From a virus (taxonomy: Duplodnaviria > Caudoviricetes), in the IMG/VR virus record IMGVR_UViG_3300017913_001550, positions 1 to 45,767 of that record: a DNA stretch of 45,767 bases; one strand, given 5' to 3'. This document shows, piece by piece, positions 6,160 to 45,767 of this stretch. The notes beneath the pieces were generated by a model, which was not told the origin of the DNA, searched no databases, and worked only from the letters and a program-made list of their open reading frames with translations. Positions within the stretch are counted from its first letter, which is position 1, and each line of letters starts with the position of its first letter. Position numbers and translations under genes: made by a program.

Positions 6160-7911
6160 TTAAACTACCACTTCTACTAGTTTAATACCGTTGTCTTGAT
6201 TGTCTTCTAATGATCTTCCAAGCACACAACACGCATGTGGTAAAGCACTATCTTTGGTTAATGCTGTAGCAATACCCGGTTTTGGACTTGTTACAATTAA
6301 ATCACCTTTGTTAACAGCACCTTCTACTTTGCAAGGAACTCTACCTCTTAGTGCTACTGCATTAACAAAGTCTCCGTATAGACTTGAATTCATAAGGTGT
6401 GCAGGTTCTGTGGATACAATGCCTGCAATTCTTGTATCACAAAATACACTAGTGGTTGTGACTTCGTTTGCGCCGCCAAAGATTAAAACTGTGCCTGGAT
6501 CATACTTGTTATCTCCAAGATAGTTTTCTGCCAAGTCAGCATATTGAGCGGCTGTTGCAGTACCTCTAAATACACGAGCAAACACATCTGAATTTCCGTC
6601 ACGTTTAACAATGGTGTTGTTTGCAGATGTAACACTAGCACTTGCATTATCTAATTGACTAGCATTAGTGGCTGTACCATTAAAATTGACAGCACTGATA
6701 TCACCGTCAGCATCTCTAGCCGCAATAGTATTACCTGTTGCTGTAGTTGCCGCTGGTCTTGCTGTACCACTTACAAATAAGTTTGTTGCAGTTGTTGATG
6801 TACCTGTTAGTGATGCTGTTAATGCACCTGTAACAGTTAAGTTATTGAATGAACTGGTTCCCGAACTTGTTACGTTACCAACAACGTTACCTGTTAAGTT
6901 TCCCGTAACATTACCTGTAACATTACCAGTTACATTTCCGTTTAAAGAACCGTTTTGATCTAGTGTCAAATCTGTAAAGAAACCGTTTGACCATTTAGTA
7001 TTAGTGTTACCTATCGTGCCTGTGTCATCAACACTAGGCAAAAATGCATTATCAATAAACTGTGCAACTTTTTGTGTTTGACCTGCGGTATTTAAATTGA
7101 AATTTAATACATTACCTACTTGGTTTGTTAAGTTACCTTGGTCACTGTTGGTAACATGTAATTTTAAATCACTACCGGCGCCAACTACTAAACCATCGTC
7201 GTTTCTAAAACTTACAACGTCAGCAAAACTCTGTAGTCCACTATTAAGGACATATTGTGCCGCTGGAATACCGCCTAGTTGATCAGCATCTTCTGCTGTT
7301 CCCCAATAACGCATACCAATATATGTTTGTTTGCTGGCTAGGTTTAAACCTTTTTTGATTGAACTAAAACCTGGAATAGGGTTGCTTTGTTCGTCTAAAA
7401 TAAATTCGTCTTTTGAAATAATGTTAATAACTTGGTCATTAACACTTGCTTGAAGCACTGTTCTGTTGTTTCCTAGTGTGTCTTTGTATACTTTACTAGT
7501 AAATGTACTAACACCTTCACCACCTGTTGCAACAGGACCTACAAGAACATAATCTTGACCATTGTAAACATATAACTGCTGGCCTTCATCTTCCCACCAA
7601 AAATCACCATTGGCTAATCCTACCGGAGCAACTGGTCCTACTTCTGCACCACCAGCAATTCTAAATCTACTACCGTCATAGAACTTGATAACTTTGTTAC
7701 CTGTATCATACCATATTTGTCCTGATACTGGTTTAGGCGGTTGATTACTGCCTGCAAAATTTTCTAGAATGTGTACTAGATTCTCATTTAGGATTTCACC
7801 AAAACCTGCATAGTTTTTACCGATAAGTTTTATATCAAGAGTTTGATCAATAGTACCATCGTTTACTACTGCAATTTGTTGTCCGTTGTATGTGTTTACT
7901 ATATATGGCAT
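6160..7911 (-). CDS. tail fibre with C-terminal intramolecular-chaperone (peptidase G2-like) domain
   Basis: Shared fibre N-terminus (LIGKNYAGFGE..NEN...LENFA...GQIWYD), GNVT repeats, C-terminal YADLAENY...GRVPCKV.G...KGD domain (~6160-6545). Confidence 0.75.
   Translation of the reverse strand: MPYIVNTYNGQQIAVVNDGTIDQTLDIKLIGKNYAGFGEILNENLVHILENFAGSNQPPKPVSGQIWYDTGNKVIKFYDGSRFRIAGGAEVGPVAPVGLANGDFWWEDEGQQLYVYNGQDYVLVGPVATGGEGVSTFTSKVYKDTLGNNRTVLQASVNDQVINIISKDEFILDEQSNPIPGFSSIKKGLNLASKQTYIGMRYWGTAEDADQLGGIPAAQYVLNSGLQSFADVVSFRNDDGLVVGAGSDLKLHVTNSDQGNLTNQVGNVLNFNLNTAGQTQKVAQFIDNAFLPSVDDTGTIGNTNTKWSNGFFTDLTLDQNGSLNGNVTGNVTGNVTGNLTGNVVGNVTSSGTSSFNNLTVTGALTASLTGTSTTATNLFVSGTARPAATTATGNTIAARDADGDISAVNFNGTATNASQLDNASASVTSANNTIVKRDGNSDVFARVFRGTATAAQYADLAENYLGDNKYDPGTVLIFGGANEVTTTSVFCDTRIAGIVSTEPAHLMNSSLYGDFVNAVALRGRVPCKVEGAVNKGDLIVTSPKPGIATALTKDSALPHACCVLGRSLEDNQDNGIKLVEVVV
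6868..6940 (-). repeat. degenerate 12-bp tandem repeat encoding (GNVT)n
   Basis: Encodes GNVTGNVTGNVTGNLTGNVVGNVT; tgtaacattacc/tgttacgttacc-type units on the + strand. Confidence 0.8.
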
Positions 7912-39895: not shown

Positions 39896-40747
39896 ATGAA
39901 AAGACAAAAATATTTAACAAATAAGGACTTGTTGCGTGAAATTCACGTGAGCAAGAATACTTATTGCGAATTTGTCGAAGCGGAGCACAGCGAATATGAC
40001 ATCATACTACCAAGTTTAGAAAAAGTAAACAGATTATCAGTAGCAGAAGCAAAACGCAAACGTGCAGACAAAATTGGCAAAAAAGCATACGAAGAAGCAA
40101 AAGCAAACAAGAAAAAAGTAAAGTTAGCGGAAGTAACACCGGATTGGCGTAAGATTGATAAAAAGGATCTAGTTTTTAGAATCATGACATTTGATCATAT
40201 TCCAAAAGAGCCTGGACGTAAACGCAAAACCAAAACAATAGCAGACGAACACACAAAAGTAAACTTTCCTCCATTTCAGCATTGGAAATACAATGACAAT
40301 GATGAACTTATCTGTGTAGGGAAAAGCCATTGGGAAGGTGGTCTTCACAACGGTGCATTTAGAAAAGACCACGGAAGAATGACAGAAGACCTTGGACGCA
40401 TGTTTTTAAAACTTGCTGATAGATATGGCACTAGATCAAACTGGCGTGGTTACACTTACAACGACGAAATGCGAGCCCAAGCAGTATTACAACTTTCGCA
40501 GATTGGATTGCAGTTTGACGAATCAAAATCAGAAAATCCATTTGCGTATTACACAGCCGCGGTAACAAATAGTTTTACCCGTGTGCTGAATATTGAAAAG
40601 AAAAACCAAAACATTAGAGATGATATCTTGCAAGAGAACGGATTGAACCCTTCGTTTACAAGACAACATCAAGAAGTGTTCAAAGAGGACAAAGAAAAAC
40701 TTGCTGAGTTCTACAAGAACATGAGACGACCAAAGGCAGACTATTAA
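39896..40747 (+). CDS. late-transcription sigma factor, T4 gp55-like
   Basis: YLTNKDLL N-terminus, LG.MF..LA......NWRGYTY.DEM and FD..KS.NPFAYYT....NSF.R; sits upstream of gp47/gp46 as in T4-like phages. Confidence 0.88.
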   Translation: MKRQKYLTNKDLLREIHVSKNTYCEFVEAEHSEYDIILPSLEKVNRLSVAEAKRKRADKIGKKAYEEAKANKKKVKLAEVTPDWRKIDKKDLVFRIMTFDHIPKEPGRKRKTKTIADEHTKVNFPPFQHWKYNDNDELICVGKSHWEGGLHNGAFRKDHGRMTEDLGRMFLKLADRYGTRSNWRGYTYNDEMRAQAVLQLSQIGLQFDESKSENPFAYYTAAVTNSFTRVLNIEKKNQNIRDDILQENGLNPSFTRQHQEVFKEDKEKLAEFYKNMRRPKADY

Positions 40748-41172
40748 TGGAACTAGTTAAAATTGACGATGATTGGAGACTTGGTGCGTGTAAGGATGAT
40801 CCTGTTAGGGCTCATATTCCACTGCACTTTAGAGTCACCAACGGTAGAGAAGTATATGCACTAGAAAACGACGATGCAATCATTCAAGCAGTTATCTGTG
40901 TTGCATATACAGATGAAATTCCTACCAATGAAGATGATTTAAAATTTACAGGAGATAAAATTGCAGTGTTCTATACCGTATGGAGTTATGAAAAAGGCAT
41001 GGGTAGAGAAATTGTAAATCAAGTTTGGAATCATCTAAAAGCAACAAAACCTAGCGTAAAAAGATATGTTACTCTAAGTCCACTGACAGACATGGCTCGC
41101 AACTTCCATCTTAAAAATGGTGCAAAGTTTATCAGCAAACATGCTGACTGTCAAAACTTTGAATACGTATAG
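40747..41172 (+). CDS. GNAT-fold protein resembling the malonyl-CoA decarboxylase catalytic core
   Basis: AVFYTVWSY..G.GREIV, VTLSP and ARNFHLKNGA parallel the MCD motifs AIFYSIS, TLSP and ARFHL.NGA. Confidence 0.6.
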   Translation: MELVKIDDDWRLGACKDDPVRAHIPLHFRVTNGREVYALENDDAIIQAVICVAYTDEIPTNEDDLKFTGDKIAVFYTVWSYEKGMGREIVNQVWNHLKATKPSVKRYVTLSPLTDMARNFHLKNGAKFISKHADCQNFEYV

Positions 41173-41215: not shown

Positions 41216-42238
41216 ATGGCAAATTTATTCAAGAAGGCCGCAGTGTTTACGGATATTCACTTCGGATTGAAATCAAATAGTAAAACGCACAACGATGACT
41301 GTGAACGTTTCGTGGATTGGTATATTGAAACTGCCAAGGCCAACGGATGTGAAGTAGGCATTTTTTGTGGTGACTGGCATCACAACAGAAGTGCATTAAA
41401 TTTAACAACCATGGATGCAAGTCTGCGTTCGCTGGAAAAACTAGGTGCGGCTTTTGAACAGTTCTACTTCTTTCCAGGCAATCACGATTTATACTACAAA
41501 GATAAAAGAGAAATTCACAGTGTAATTTTTGGCAGACACGTGCCAGGTGTTACAGTTGTAAACAAGCCTATGGTCAAAGACGATGTAGGATTGATTCCTT
41601 GGCTGGTTGGAGATGAATGGAAAAAAGTAGGAGCCTTGCAGTGCAAATATATGTTTGGTCACTTTGAACTTCCTAACTTTAAAATGAATGCCATGGTTGA
41701 AATGCCCGACACAGGTGAAATCAAACCAGACGATTTTAAGGCACAAGAATTAGTGTTTACAGGACACTTTCATAAAAGACAACAACGCAACAACATTTAC
41801 TATATTGGTAATGCATTTCCACACAATTATGCAGATGCATGGGATGATGAACGTGGCATGATGACACTGGAATGGGGTGGAGAACCTCAATTTATTGATT
41901 GGCCGGATTGTCCAAAATACAGGACTGTAAAACTAAGCCGTTTATTGGATAAAACAGATGAACTTCTTTCGCCGGGTAACTTGTATTTGCGTGTTACACT
42001 AGACATTGACATTTCATACGAAGAAGCAAACTTTATTAAAGAAAACTTTGCACAACAATACGATATTAGGGAGATTAGTTTGTTACCTGATACAACAGAA
42101 TCAGATGAAGATTTAAGTTTAGATCGAGGAGATGTTGAATTTGAAAGTGTAGATCAAATTGTAACTGATCAAATAACAAAAATTGAAAGTGAGCAGTACA
42201 AGCCGAACACACTGCTGGACATTTATAGGAACTTATAA
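41216..42238 (+). CDS. recombination nuclease subunit, gp47/Mre11/SbcD-like
   Basis: Calcineurin-like phosphoesterase motifs DIH, GDWHH, GNHD, GHF and GHFH. Confidence 0.93.
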   Translation: MANLFKKAAVFTDIHFGLKSNSKTHNDDCERFVDWYIETAKANGCEVGIFCGDWHHNRSALNLTTMDASLRSLEKLGAAFEQFYFFPGNHDLYYKDKREIHSVIFGRHVPGVTVVNKPMVKDDVGLIPWLVGDEWKKVGALQCKYMFGHFELPNFKMNAMVEMPDTGEIKPDDFKAQELVFTGHFHKRQQRNNIYYIGNAFPHNYADAWDDERGMMTLEWGGEPQFIDWPDCPKYRTVKLSRLLDKTDELLSPGNLYLRVTLDIDISYEEANFIKENFAQQYDIREISLLPDTTESDEDLSLDRGDVEFESVDQIVTDQITKIESEQYKPNTLLDIYRNL

Positions 42239-44019
42239 TGTTTAATGTAAAAACAATAACTGTAAAAAACTTTATGAGTGTGGGTAACAGCACACAAGCA
42301 GTTGATTTTGATCGAGATCATCTAACACTAGTACTAGGTGAAAATATGGATCTCGGTGGAGATGATGCTGGTTCACGTAATGGTACAGGTAAAACAACAA
42401 TCATTAATGCACTAAGTTATGCACTGTATGGCGAAGCACTAACAAAGATTCGCAGAGAAAATCTTGTAAACAAAACCAACGGCAAAGCAATGTTGGTTAC
42501 TGTTGAATTTGAAAAAGGCGGCAAAACATATAGAATCGAAAGAGGCAGACGCCCTAACGTTCTTAAGTTTTATATGAATGATGCGGAAGTAACCGCAGAC
42601 GATGTTGACGAGTCTCAGGGCGACTCAAGAAAGACGCAGGAAGAAATTGAGCGTCTATTGAACATGAGCCATACTATGTTCAAACACTTGGTCGCCCTGA
42701 ACACATACACAGAACCGTTCCTGGCTATGACTCCAAATGGTCAGAGAGAAATTATTGAACAACTTCTGGGTATTACTATCCTCAGTGAAAAGGCTGAAAA
42801 ACTCAAAGAGCAACAAAAAAATATTAGAGATGCTATCACTGAGGAAGATGCAAAAATCAAAGGTATTGAAAGTGCAAACAAAGCAGTACAAGAAAGCATT
42901 GATAATCTTGAAATAAAAAGCAAAGCATGGGATGCCACACAAGCAGACGAAATTGCAAAACTAGCAAAAGCAATCAACAGTCTTATCACTGTTGATATTG
43001 ATGCAGAAATTAAAGCACATGATGATCTAAAAACATGGGAATCTGCAAACAGCGAAATACAAAGTTTACAAAAAGAAAAAGCAAGTTTAGACAGCAGTAT
43101 TACAAGAGCAGAACGCACACACAAAAAGTATGAAAAAGAACTAGAAGATATTTCAAGCAAGAAATGTTTTACGTGTGGTCAGGATCTGCACGGCGAAGCA
43201 CATGAAAAAATTCTTGCTGAAAAGCAAAATGATGTACAGGAAAGTCAAACATACATCGATGGGATTCAACTGCAACTAGATGAGGTTACACAAAAACTAG
43301 ATGCCATTGGTGACATTAATGGACGTCCTAACACATTTTATGATACAGCAGAAGAAGCATTTAACCACAGAAACAACTTGGCAAGTTTAGAAGATCGTAA
43401 AAAAGAACGTGAAGCAGAAACTAATCCATACAGCGAACAAATGGAAGAACTAACAACAACTGCACTGAAAGAAATCAGTTGGGGTTATATGAATGAATTG
43501 CAAAACATGAAGTCACACATGGACTTCTTGTACAAACTTTTAACCAGCAAGGATTCTTTTATACGTAAGCGTATTATTGATCAGAACTTGCTGGTACTGA
43601 ACAAGCGTTTACAATACTACTTGGATAGAACAGGACTTCCACATCAGGTTAAGTTTGGTAATGATCTAGCAGTAGAAATTACAGAACTAGGCAGAGACTT
43701 AGACTTTGATAATCTATCAAGAGGTGAACGCAATAGACTTATCCTAAGTTTGAGTTGGGCATTCCGTGATGTATGGGAAAACTTATATCAAAGCATCAAC
43801 CTACTGTTTATTGATGAGTTGATTGACAGTGGAATGGATACAGCAGGTGTTGAAAGTGCTATTGCTATTCTTAAGAAAATGGCAAGAGAAAGACACAAAA
43901 ACATTTATTTGATTTCACACAAAGATGAACTAAGTTCACGTGTGAACAATATTCTAAAAGTTGTTAAGGAAAATGGCTTTACCAGTTACTCAAATGACAC
44001 TGAGGTAACAAATGCCTAA
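42238..44019 (+). CDS. recombination ATPase subunit, gp46/Rad50/SbcC-like
   Basis: KNFMS, Walker A NGTGKT, coiled coil with zinc hook CFTC, signature LSRGE, Walker B LFIDE, H-loop ISH. Confidence 0.93.
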   Translation: MFNVKTITVKNFMSVGNSTQAVDFDRDHLTLVLGENMDLGGDDAGSRNGTGKTTIINALSYALYGEALTKIRRENLVNKTNGKAMLVTVEFEKGGKTYRIERGRRPNVLKFYMNDAEVTADDVDESQGDSRKTQEEIERLLNMSHTMFKHLVALNTYTEPFLAMTPNGQREIIEQLLGITILSEKAEKLKEQQKNIRDAITEEDAKIKGIESANKAVQESIDNLEIKSKAWDATQADEIAKLAKAINSLITVDIDAEIKAHDDLKTWESANSEIQSLQKEKASLDSSITRAERTHKKYEKELEDISSKKCFTCGQDLHGEAHEKILAEKQNDVQESQTYIDGIQLQLDEVTQKLDAIGDINGRPNTFYDTAEEAFNHRNNLASLEDRKKEREAETNPYSEQMEELTTTALKEISWGYMNELQNMKSHMDFLYKLLTSKDSFIRKRIIDQNLLVLNKRLQYYLDRTGLPHQVKFGNDLAVEITELGRDLDFDNLSRGERNRLILSLSWAFRDVWENLYQSINLLFIDELIDSGMDTAGVESAIAILKKMARERHKNIYLISHKDELSSRVNNILKVVKENGFTSYSNDTEVTNA

Positions 44020-44236
44020 GACCACACACGAACTTTTAGTACAGGCTATGATGGACTACTATAATAACAACGAGCGTTTTGAAGCAAAAAACTTCGACGA
44101 AACAGGACGCAAAGCAAGGGCAATACTCAGCGACATTAGAAGGCTATGCACACAGAGGCGATACGAAATTCAAGAAAAAAGAAAGCAAAACAAAGAGGCA
44201 AAAGCGGCAACAAAACTCAGTTCTGAGACTGAGTAA
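44012..44236 (+). CDS. small basic helical protein, possibly histone H1-like (Hc1-type) DNA binder
   Basis: 74 aa; F..KN....G.KAR..L..I..L...RR.EIQ..R pattern; Lys/Arg-rich C-terminus. Confidence 0.55.
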   Translation: MPKTTHELLVQAMMDYYNNNERFEAKNFDETGRKARAILSDIRRLCTQRRYEIQEKRKQNKEAKAATKLSSETE

Positions 44237-44259
44237 ATATAGGGCAGGTAACTACCTAT

Positions 44260-44691
44260 ATGGATTGGACCTATCAAGGCAAAGTTATCGACGAACTTCC
44301 ACAAGACTGTGAAGGCTTTGTCTATTTGATAACCAATCTCACAAACAACCGCAAGTATGTGGGCAAAAAACTAGCAAAGTTTAAAAAGACTCGCCCACCA
44401 CTTAAAGGCAAAAAAAATAAAAGGCGCTCAAAAGTTGAGTCAGATTGGAAAGATTATTGGGGTTCCAACGACCACTTGAAGGCAGATGTAGAAACACTAG
44501 GCCCAGAAAAATTCTCACGCGAAATACTTTATATTTGTAACAGCAGAGGCTTAATGAGTTATCTCGAGGCAAAGGAACAGTTTGACCGTAGGGTATTAGA
44601 GACAGACGAGTATTACAACGGAATTATTAATGTAAGGGTCGGCGGTTCCAAAATTCTAAAAGAAGCACTACAAAATCTAAAGGCAATATAA
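44260..44691 (+). CDS. stand-alone GIY-YIG nuclease (T4 endonuclease II/Seg catalytic-domain-like)
   Basis: GFVY...YVG, YWGS, catalytic-type E (YLEAKEQ) and YYN; 143 aa with no extra DNA-binding module; TAAATA at 44234-44239 upstream. Confidence 0.85.
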   Translation: MDWTYQGKVIDELPQDCEGFVYLITNLTNNRKYVGKKLAKFKKTRPPLKGKKNKRRSKVESDWKDYWGSNDHLKADVETLGPEKFSREILYICNSRGLMSYLEAKEQFDRRVLETDEYYNGIINVRVGGSKILKEALQNLKAI

Positions 44692-45085
44692 CAGCACCTA
44701 AGGTTGGCGGGCCAGTTTGCAAATACCGCTGTGGAAAAGGTTATAGAAATATAACACACGTACATGCTGATCAACCCCCTCTGGGAGATAAGCCATCAAA
44801 AGAATTGGGCTCACTGGTTGGCATAGATTGAATGCTGTCAATCAAACAACACTGTTCAGAAAACTCTTTGCAAAGGAACGAAGCAAGAGGTAGCGAAGCG
44901 ACCCGCGGTAGCGGTAAAGCGGTAAAGCGGTTTTTTCGTGATGTCGATGTAGGTTGGGAAAGGTCAGAGCCCATGAACAACAGTGCAAATACCTACTTCC
45001 AAGTCTTGGCTGTGGCGAACTCACATGATGCTGAGAAGGGCGGAACCAAAAATAGGTTCCGTCTGACTGAAACAATCTACATGAT
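44692..45085 (+). ncRNA. candidate large structured non-coding RNA (family unassigned)
   Basis: Longest intergenic region in the window and GC-richer than other spacers. Many local hairpins (including GTTATA-GAAA-TATAAC) and crossing long-range complementarities (see findings). Strand inferred from the GNRA loop and G-U pairs. Confidence 0.6.
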
Positions 45086-45088
45086 ACT

Positions 45089-45162
45089 TAAATGCTTCGC
45101 ATTTATTCATAAAGAAAATGTATTGAGCGTAAGCGATAATACATGTGATCTTTAGATCACAT
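45089..45162. terminator. three consecutive hairpins at a convergent junction (terminator/processing or ssDNA structure)
   Basis: TAAATGC-TTC-GCATTTA 45089-45105; ATGTATT...AATACAT 45118-45144; ATGTGATC-TTTA-GATCACAT 45143-45162. Confidence 0.45.
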
Positions 45163-45163
45163 C

Positions 45164-45343
45164 TTAATGTAAATCAGGATCACGTCCAAATCCACTTTTA
45201 ACTGCACTTACTTGAATTTCCTTTACTTCGTACTCTTTGTCTGGATTGTTTTGTTTGAGCATAGAGAGACAGACATCTACTTCTTCTGCTGAATTCAACA
45301 GTTCGATGTCATTTTTCTCAACTATTACATACTTCTTGATCAT
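45164..45343 (-). CDS. small hypothetical protein (59 aa)
   Basis: MIKKYVIVEK...GFGRDPDLH. Start moved to ATG 45343, which follows a TAAATA late motif at 45352-45357. Confidence 0.7.
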   Translation of the reverse strand: MIKKYVIVEKNDIELLNSAEEVDVCLSMLKQNNPDKEYEVKEIQVSAVKSGFGRDPDLH

Positions 45344-45432
45344 AGTAGATTTATTTAGAACGAGATTTTGCAAATAAAACTACACTATTTGGTTTTTGGC
45401 ACCTTACGACCATAAAGAAAATAAATAACTGT

Positions 45433-45767
45433 ATGAAAATAACGGAAATCACAGAAGCACCATACAGTTTTGCACAAAAAGCCGCGGATACAGTTAAAGG
45501 TTTAAACCCTTTTAGCAAGAACATGCGACAAAGTGCGGATGCTAACAGAGCACTGGGTGACTTTAAAAACAAACTAAAAAGAGATTTTAATGAGTTTGCT
45601 AAACTAAGCAAACAGGCGCCTACTCCGGAACTACTGCAACAGTGGTTACAGCAGAATTATCCGTTACAGGGTGCAAAAAAATCTGAGCCGCAGGCTACGC
45701 CTGATCAACAAAAGGCCCAACCTCAAGCACAGCAACAGAAAACAACACAGCAACCTCAAGCACAGCA
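45433..45767 (+). CDS. 5' part of a late (possibly head-internal) protein, runs off window end
   Basis: Open frame MKITEITEAPYSF...QPQAQQQKTTQQPQAQ from ATG 45433 with TAAATA at 45422-45427; 17-bp direct repeat at 45718-45734 and 45751-45767. Confidence 0.8.
   Translation, partial: MKITEITEAPYSFAQKAADTVKGLNPFSKNMRQSADANRALGDFKNKLKRDFNEFAKLSKQAPTPELLQQWLQQNYPLQGAKKSEPQATPDQQKAQPQAQQQKTTQQPQAQ

Follow-up and report, generated by a model that had tools for sequence, protein, structure and literature searches.

What lies in the long gap behind the last gene of the recombination operon in a 45,767-nucleotide (nt) stretch of phage DNA (IMG/VR record IMGVR_UViG_3300017913_001550, the whole of which is called the window here), and what could such an element do for the phage that carries it? 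The window is a 45.8-kb fragment of an uncultured T4-like giant phage, 13% complete by CheckV, and its operon runs from a late sigma factor through gp47, gp46 and a 74-amino-acid (aa) basic protein to a GIY-YIG nuclease gene (44260-44691, + strand), where the gap begins. The original prediction, drawn from this one stretch, had placed there a multi-pseudoknot RNA of about 400 nt that scaffolds or guides the nuclease or acts in recombination-dependent replication. Comparison with relatives shows that the gap does hold a large structured element, not catalogued so far, whose unusual signature is a pair of short boxes that match each other while their sequence differs between phages. As a family it closes the gp47-gp46 operon across a clade of giant phages, to whose core it belongs, and the adjoining nuclease can be swapped for another.

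The gap itself is genuine, as the original prediction had it. It spans 472 nt (44692-45163), while the other 28 gaps between ATG-initiated open reading frames (ORFs) in the window measure at most 86 nt, with a median of 6.5 nt, and just 3' of the element lies a small ORF (45164-45373) convergent with the operon. A frame of 107 codons on the + strand at 44832 is not a gene, as it has no PHROG or Pfam match and the spacing across it falls into all three frames among 50 relatives (15/14/21). Within the single sequence, complementary segments of 5-6 bp occur at chance frequency (84 versus 78 and 24 versus 19 over 300 shuffles), those of 7 bp are in excess (13 versus 4.9, reached in 0 of 300 shuffles), and the minimum free energy gives a z-score of about -2.5 on either strand. 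Since one sequence cannot settle a structure, relatives were collected and compared, 80 loci through the protein and 119 through the RNA motif; 50 distinct full-length members of the window's own subtype (type A) were aligned, and the structure was derived from mutual information and pair counts on this alignment.

The resulting structure has 87.7% of alignment cells paired and 41 of its 84 pairs changed on both sides, while shuffled controls give 79.7% and 28.9 two-sided pairs (0 of 500 reaching the observed values) and slid controls pair in 35-42% of cells. G-U pairs far exceed A-C pairs (228 versus 5 in 49 well-aligned helix positions), which assigns the structure to the + strand. Covariation in the 50 relatives thus confirms a conserved, pseudoknotted, sense-strand structured element outside Rfam. 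Its 5' domain (44691-44843, + strand), which is exchangeable between subtypes, is tied together by the pseudoknot PK1 (44691-96/44833-38), whose 5' strand starts on the last base of the nuclease stop codon and joins the loop of P5; 99.3% of the PK1 cells are paired, with two-sided changes in four of six pairs. The same domain holds the + strand helices P2 (44706-10/44726-30), P3 (44731-33/44757-59), P3a (44740-55), P4 (44764-73/44815-24; two-sided changes in 6 of 10 pairs) and P5 (44826-30/44839-43; 5 of 5). The core (44850-44996, + strand) comprises a second pseudoknot, PK2 (44850-58/44974-85), P6 (44864-89) with an invariant loop at 44875-81, the variable arm P7 (44893-939), and the almost invariant helices P8 (44949-54/44991-96) and P9 (44955-58/44970-73). 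PK2, whose 3' strand lies inside P8, was tested alignment-free because indels misalign it: cognate strands form duplexes of -11.4 kcal/mol and non-cognate strands of -6.4 kcal/mol, a difference reached by 0 of 10000 permutations over 66 distinct pairs. The loops of the core are RNA-like, with 61 GNRA loops against nine of the reverse complement. Downstream, also on the + strand, P10 (45004-08/45033-37) closes a loop that contains the first box, and the hairpin P11 (45038-45064) stands between the boxes, with 99.1% of its cells paired and its changes one-sided (wobble) only.

This 3' core is common to several subtypes whose 5' domains differ, and consists throughout of a G/C helix interrupted by an internal loop, a long-range pseudoknot, a hairpin flanked by the two boxes, and a tail of small hairpins. 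Subtype D has the 5' domain of some type B members together with the twin boxes, hairpin and tail. Three further features of the fold were seen among the relatives. A near-invariant 10-mer at 44941-44950, self-complementary if G-U is allowed, could mediate dimerisation, its invariance being partly imposed by its use as the search pattern for many loci. P7 ranges in relatives from a tetraloop hairpin to AT-rich hairpins of ~80 nt, and in the window it contains a short tandem repeat. In several type A loci (L082, L084, L086 and others) the nuclease frame extends into the first pseudoknot strand, such that the 5' end of the RNA overlaps coding sequence.

The helices that had been read by eye from the window fared unevenly in this comparison. 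All the strings quoted in the original prediction are present where it placed them, and covariation or invariance supports GGCGG/CCGCT, the GTTATA hairpin, GATTG/CAATC, the CTCTT/AAGAG stem, GTAGGT/ACCTAC and GGGCGGAACC/GGTTCCGTCT. The long-range pairing of CACTGTT exists in a register shifted from the one proposed. Five of the twelve pairings, namely CAGCA/TGCTG(44765), CCAGT/ACTGG, TGGGCTC/GAGCCCA, AGCCA/TGGCT and TAGATTG/CAATCTA, fall to shuffle level, being together 77.8% paired against 77.8% in shuffles (259 of 500). The segment 44691-96 in fact pairs with 44833-38, forming a pseudoknot that the original set lacked.

The signature of the element resides in its twin boxes. Box 1 (45023-45032, + strand; a 7-nt core plus 3 nt) lies in the loop closed by P10, and box 2 (45079-45088, + strand) ends at the foot of the first tail hairpin. 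The cores, 45023-29 and 45079-85, give some of the strongest covariation signals, based on identity and not on complementarity: box 1 equals box 2 in all 50 aligned type A relatives, through 10 different heptamers, in an alignment that was not built on box identity, and a wider set of 161 distinct loci contains at least 24 different box hexamers. Every position of a box varies on its own, in step only with the corresponding position of the other box, and the spacing of the boxes is smooth (49-68 nt) with no helical phasing. Covariation by identity on one strand is what would be expected of base pairing between opposite strands, and such pairing predicts the direction of mismatches. At positions 6-8, which were not imposed by the box calling, 115 distinct pairs hold 74 transitions of the type G/A or T/C (box 1/box 2) and three of the type A/G or C/T, the former being G-T and U-G wobbles in a duplex of box 1 with the strand complementary to box 2. 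In 45 of the 49 pairs with G/A at position 7 the identity resumes at position 8 (21.5 when shuffled), so the match continues across the wobble; the boxes of the window consist of seven identities, one G/A and two further identities. Purine mismatches in symmetric alignments stand at 83:1 in type A, 89:7 in type B and 168:27 in type D, and the forward pairing gives the stabler duplex in 148 of 185 units from the three subtypes.

Other partners for the boxes were sought. No same-strand complement occurs within -450/+200 nt for 35 box types, and a third copy of the box is not above chance in the window or in the 335-kb contig G017:C57 (two ten-mers versus 3.4 expected); the complete genome G015 holds five box ten-mers versus 2.1 expected, none of 12 nt. 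A perfect partner of box 1 was found only in the bottom strand of box 2. Palindromic pairing of box with box was rejected because many boxes are not self-complementary, and readings of the box as stop codon, start codon or anticodon were rejected for too many exceptions. In L135, L147 and L180 a change at box position 3 is accompanied by C-to-G changes ~15 nt before each box, which may reflect a repeated tertiary contact.

The strictness of the boxes also bears on another view of a conserved sequence behind a terminal gene, namely that it is a structured 3' untranslated region, or a terminator or stability element, with boxes homogenised by mutation such as local template switching. The element closes an operon and meets a convergent gene, a position that fits this view. 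The identity, however, is confined to 7-10 nt, holds across subtypes that cannot be aligned with one another and is as strict as base pairs are, while 400 nt and two pseudoknots far exceed what termination needs; we rate this the least probable of the explanations considered here.

Transcription of the element is plausible. The sequence TAACTA (44249-44254, + strand), a variant of TAA[A/G]TA and a putative late promoter, precedes the nuclease gene, with a second copy, TAAATA, at 44234-39. TAA[A/G]TA stands 4-8 nt before 67 of 70 GIY-YIG starts and 5-13 nt before 43 of 77 starts of a PD-(D/E)XK nuclease that takes the same place in other phages, and in two whole contigs it peaks 4-5 nt before ATG. 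From its likeness to the T4 late promoter we infer that it is a late promoter, one that would give nearly leaderless mRNAs. The motif is also found in the window before the ORFs starting at 1532 (+ strand) and at 7911, 33233 and 33705 (- strand). As the first pseudoknot overlaps the stop codon, RNA and nuclease are probably co-transcribed. RNA libraries from two studies contain contigs of the core, among them a 211-nt piece identical to 44852-45062.

The reading that we favour, to which we assign a probability of roughly 0.4, is that a late transcript forms an R-loop by invading the gene it came from and thereby starts replication or recombination. The RNA would be made from the late-type promoter before the nuclease gene, either as a long 3' extension of the mRNA or as a processed RNA, and would fold to display box 1 in the P10 loop. 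Base pairing of box 1 to the template strand at box 2 would then create an R-loop that keeps the DNA open, and the tail hairpins could extrude on both strands, helping to maintain the opening. The opened, branched site might prime DNA synthesis or be cut by the resident junction nuclease, and the product would be handed to gp46/47 recombination-dependent replication. The part of the original prediction that had invoked this type of replication is in this respect plausible. A broader proposition, that the RNA, of ribozyme size, is self-targeting across the clade and that its internal 9-10-nt guide marks its own gene for priming or for any junction nuclease, we hold only doubtfully. On that proposition, the origin or break site would be specified by an RNA, its address could drift freely as long as the boxes match, and lineage specificity would be achieved with no protein initiator. 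If the favoured reading is true, it would be a new way for RNA to address DNA, through a built-in guide for its own template.

Transcripts that hybridise with their own template are known from other replicons. RNA II of ColE1 hybridises co-transcriptionally over a long stretch, whereas here a short internal duplicate would pair 50-68 nt downstream of its site of synthesis. According to the portion of PMC3016281 consulted, oriF of T4 uses a persistent R-loop, and oriE, oriF and oriG lie near transcription-direction switches. The principle proposed here would be shared with oriF and oriG as there described, in that a transcript hybridised with its own template opens a displaced strand for primosome loading, and so would be the T4-like replication genes and the nearness to a direction switch, as the element is 5-6 kb from the main gene-direction switch in both G015 and G017:C57. 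The T4 origin R-loops are described in that portion as using middle promoters and as needing no specific sequence or folded RNA, in contrast to the late-looking promoter and ornate fold found here.

Several points weigh against the R-loop reading. A hybrid of 9-10 bp is short for unaided invasion of duplex DNA, and the promoter looks late, where T4 R-loop origins use middle or early promoters. Proximity to a direction switch is one syntenic observation; base (GC) skew tracks the coding strand in both long contigs and shows no origin, and as an origin marker it was dropped for being confounded by gene direction. In the 161-locus set, box identity at positions 0-4 was imposed by the box calling. 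G is almost fixed at position 7 of box 1 (147 of 161), so the 49 G/A cases cannot be counted as separate events; p-values in general overstate independence because loci share ancestry. A transversion occurs at position 7 in 19 of 115 pairs. Upstream of the boxes the bias runs in the opposite direction, C/T exceeding T/C by 87:57, 95:60 and 59:26 in the three subtypes, which a bulge of 1-2 nt in box 1 could explain as an added assumption. The contigs from RNA libraries, finally, give no strand, ends or level, and conserved stretches of gp46 are as deep in them.

A different view of the same boxes is that the element is a large RNA acting in trans, with the boxes as twin sites for an outside partner, for example a dimeric protein of phage or host, or an RNA of the host, perhaps the anticodon loop of a tRNA, and that its location behind the nuclease gene only borrows a late promoter. 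We think this rather unlikely, even with the ornate fold and its invariant unpaired loops, the persistence of the RNA away from the operon in 11 loci, and a strong bias at box positions 2-5 (A, T, R, A) that pure self-pairing does not require. With a shared outside partner, the directional bias of the mismatches (74:3) would be left unexplained; the boxes, moreover, take at least 24 hexamers and change between phages whose nucleases are 93-94% identical.

The tail of the element opens a further possibility, that the whole acts as single-stranded DNA, in the manner of an origin, a primosome-assembly or a packaging-initiation structure, with no RNA involved; the folded top strand would slip its box 1 onto the bottom strand of box 2. 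Tail hairpin 1 (45089-45105, - strand), which starts where the box match ends, has a C[GAA]G loop of the DNA mini-hairpin type on the bottom strand, and the window holds only two such hairpins with a stem of at least 5 bp, the other lying in a coding region. It is followed on the + strand by hairpin 2 (45118-44, with tandem G-A pairs and a GNNA loop) and hairpin 3 (45145-60). At the position of hairpin 1, bottom-strand GNA or GNNA loops dominate in 161 loci; GNA loops occur in the tail on both strands (91 and 82), and these GNA and GNNA loops lack the purine preference of RNA GNRA loops. The consulted part of PMC13037366 describes GNA-type mini-hairpins as much more stable in DNA than in RNA and places them at the priming sites of G4/St-1 and RSF1010 and at N4 promoters. 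The hairpins of the G4/St-1 origin, of RSF1010 ssiA/ssiB and of the N4 promoters are, like those here, DNA mini-hairpins of the GCGNAGC/GCGNNAGC type, and the present ones differ in occurring on both strands and in following a large folded element. The DNA-type tail thus agrees with a single-stranded DNA structure, as does the direction of the wobbles, which fits top-strand DNA equally well, and the contigs from RNA libraries carry no strand information. The 228 G-T pairs in 49 helix positions, the GNRA loops and the two long pseudoknots are, on the other hand, typical of RNA, and the contigs in RNA libraries of two studies point weakly the same way, given that DNA can occur in such libraries. 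We consider the DNA view clearly unlikely.

The size of the element, its two pseudoknots and its invariant core also recall a ribozyme or a template RNA, for which the boxes would be successive docking or realignment sites used to cut, circularise or copy the hairpin between them, and direct repeats flanking a hairpin are indeed used by template-jumping systems. No Rfam ribozyme matches the element, however, and no internal guide complementary to the boxes was found; the reverse transcriptase domain PF00078 (RVT_1) is absent from five records, two of them complete; template jumping predicts the opposite wobble direction; and the RNA libraries, which offer contigs only, contain no joint of box 1 to box 2. 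A role of this kind appears quite improbable.

How far the nuclease belongs to the RNA was examined from both sides. Loci with too short a flank were dropped (32 of 119 type A, 15 of 120 type B, 51 of 123 type D and 8 of 80 GIY-YIG loci). In type A, the GIY-YIG gene is directly upstream in all 87 loci with a visible upstream gene. Upstream sequence of at least 600 nt is present in 105 type B loci, of which 81 have GIY-YIG, a set in which L258 is probably a chance motif match and L235, L245 and L263 carry inserted or fused sequence, and 24 do not. These 24 comprise nine with a PD-(D/E)XK protein in the slot, one with this protein and an inserted gene, one divergent PD-(D/E)XK, one divergent GIY-YIG, one divergent endonuclease VII and 11 with no nuclease within 2 kb. 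The PD-(D/E)XK protein is PF24608, PHROG 244 'RusA-like Holliday junction resolvase', and the replacing nucleases lie, for example, at 1380-1886 of locus L217 and 2361-2990 of locus L223. A search started from this protein found GIY-YIG within 4 kb in none of 80 loci; 16 of them have the type B core, and 61 of the other 64 a subtype D anchor (matched at an early site in L345 and L349). Type D loci with enough flank have PD-(D/E)XK in 69 of 69 cases. Among the top GIY-YIG homologs with enough flank, 66 of 72 are followed by the RNA and six lack both RNA and gp46, and the complete genome of Methylophilales phage Melnitz encodes a 76%-identical GIY-YIG with no trace of the RNA core. In L263, a 409-aa GIY-YIG protein with C-terminal repeats precedes a divergent member of the RNA family whose boxes are not callable.

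Whole genomes and long contigs tell a similar story of exchange. The complete G015 and G016 have the RNA and one PD-(D/E)XK, with no PF19835, the family of the GIY-YIG nuclease, and no endonuclease VII; G017:C57 has GIY-YIG only; and in G003 endonuclease VII adjoins the RNA, the other two nucleases being absent. No PD-(D/E)XK was found in the window and nine partial GIY-type records, nor GIY-YIG in five partial records, all 13-72% complete; where testable, there is one junction-type nuclease per genome. RNA subtype also fails to follow protein lineage: 89%-identical proteins carry different subtypes, and one subtype spans proteins down to ~50% identity. Across subtypes, no alignment column of the protein changes consistently with the box sequence, the top columns being variable termini that depend on subtype, and in a quick GIY-YIG tree of 149 columns with many open forks the box types are clustered and recur. 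The standing of the RNA as core to the clade, with an exchangeable neighbour, rests on this occurrence of the same RNA with GIY-YIG, PD-(D/E)XK, endonuclease VII or none.

The linkage to the nuclease that the original prediction supposed is thus complete in type A and broken in the wider family, and the idea of the RNA as a specific scaffold or guide of GIY-YIG gives way, since the same family accompanies PD-(D/E)XK, 11 of 105 type B loci are nuclease-free and Melnitz is RNA-free. The idea of a ribonucleoprotein, with the RNA as scaffold or guide of the minimal nuclease and the boxes as a short guide, would draw on the pairing of the two in 87 of 87 type A and 66 of 72 top GIY-YIG loci, on their probable co-transcription, and on the modelled basic beta-hairpin of the nuclease, which could bind RNA. 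The RNA family, and even the same box (L203 versus L017), nevertheless stands behind the unrelated PD-(D/E)XK, as in all 69 type D loci; G015 and G016 have the RNA and Melnitz the nuclease, each with its counterpart missing, and no residue is linked to the box. The only short variable matched segment that could act as a guide is the 7-10-nt box, which has no consistent target in the loci or the two long contigs. As an obligate pair the ribonucleoprotein is largely refuted, and as a reading of this locus its probability is slighter still than that of a ribozyme or template RNA.

The nuclease itself is a SegE-type GIY-YIG protein of 143 aa (PF19835, E 3.8e-35 over residues 1-123; PHROG 447) with an intact catalytic set, Y22, Y33, G35, R56, E103 and N120, conserved in at least 97% of 115 homologs. 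Its description as a bare domain stands, and the basic loop that had been remarked on is also present in homologs that lack the RNA (L077 and others). The AlphaFold model has a pLDDT (predicted local distance difference test) score of 93; Foldseek finds no match to it at E <=0.001, the top rows being the I-TevI catalytic domain, a weak match (E 0.12), and sequence searches against the PDB found no real match. The catalytic domain with its intact residues is shared with SLX1 and with T4 Seg and I-TevI; in contrast to the Seg and I-TevI homing endonucleases, the protein has no DNA-recognition domain, no intron and a fixed position among core genes. Rfam gives no group I intron match here, and the flanking genes are intact and convergent. 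GIY-YIG domains are able to resolve Holliday junctions, as SLX1 shows. The simplest reading of the exchanges described above is that three enzymes may do the same job on branched DNA, and the GIY-YIG protein is probably a structure-recognising enzyme, the junction resolvase of this phage, and not RNA-guided, a role suggested by its mutual replacement with PD-(D/E)XK and endonuclease VII. The replacement in the slot suggests a resolvase-like junction nuclease role for the very common PHROG 447 protein, which has a homolog in 779 cultured-phage records and carries the label 'NAD synthetase' or 'homing endonuclease'.

To our knowledge, few large structured phage RNAs have a proposed partner. GOLLD, ROOL, OLE and ARRPOF, all in Rfam 15, are large, pseudoknotted, of unknown function and partly phage-borne; the element matches none of them at the gathering score or at E up to 10, and we know of no twin-box signature in any of the four. 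HEARO, or omega-RNA with IscB, similarly adjoins a nuclease gene as a large RNA, but is part of an obligate mobile RNA-nuclease pair with a long variable guide, whereas the locus here is single-copy and fixed and its nuclease exchangeable or absent. As the original prediction had allowed, Rfam 15 gives no gathering-threshold match in the window, the best E value in 44200-45450 being 0.46.

One orphan motif can be extended to a full-length RNA by this family. Polynucleobacter-1 (RF01718), listed in 2010 as a probable cis-regulatory motif in the part of Weinberg et al. 2010 (PMC2864571) consulted, is the 5' domain of subtype C. It matches two of 14 loci scanned, L052 with 107.8 bits and L040 with 59.4 bits (cut-off 37), in each case directly behind the GIY-YIG gene and before the shared twin-box core. 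The Polynucleobacter-1 model (141 positions) spans none of the core, boxes or tail, and the 5' domain of the window does not match it. The literature search returned no description of the RNA presented here; Fremin et al. 2023 (PMC10690425) report, in the portion consulted, candidates of 29-151 nt from the same virus collection, and their set may list fragments of it. Scans of IMG/VR give estimates of ~800, ~780 and ~220 stored stretches for three subtype motifs. A blastn search of the RNA against 50,697 cultured-phage records returned one chance match of 30 nt, and no cultured record with type A. Three matches in a collection of bacterial genomes are contigs of metagenome bins with the gp46-GIY context seen in phages; one of them, G017:C57, was examined over its full length and agrees with these giant phages in size and operon.

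The finding bears on where and how aquatic phages of ~350 kb start replication, and the family offers a sharp and cheap test, having two must-match boxes and a predicted direction of pairing. Complete relatives of the window phage measure 352-364 kb. The constant upstream context of the element is formed by the SbcD/SbcC-like recombination nuclease genes gp47 and gp46 (41216-44019, + strand; PHROG 100 and 77), the latter being upstream of the element in most loci of every subtype. The 74-aa basic protein (44012-44236) has no PHROG or Pfam match; it occurs in many GIY-type loci, and tblastn found none in the PD-(D/E)XK loci examined. A search for tRNA and transfer-messenger RNA (tmRNA) in the window found none. 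The contig G017:C57 (335 kb, L405), which was binned in a bacterial metagenome-assembled genome, has a permuted tmRNA (42056-42400) and 10 tRNA calls, and a further, nearly identical copy of the locus (L406) is present in its bin. Between the late sigma factor and gp47 of the window, an ORF of 141 aa (40747-41172) matches the malonyl-CoA decarboxylase C-terminal domain PF05292 (E 6e-6).

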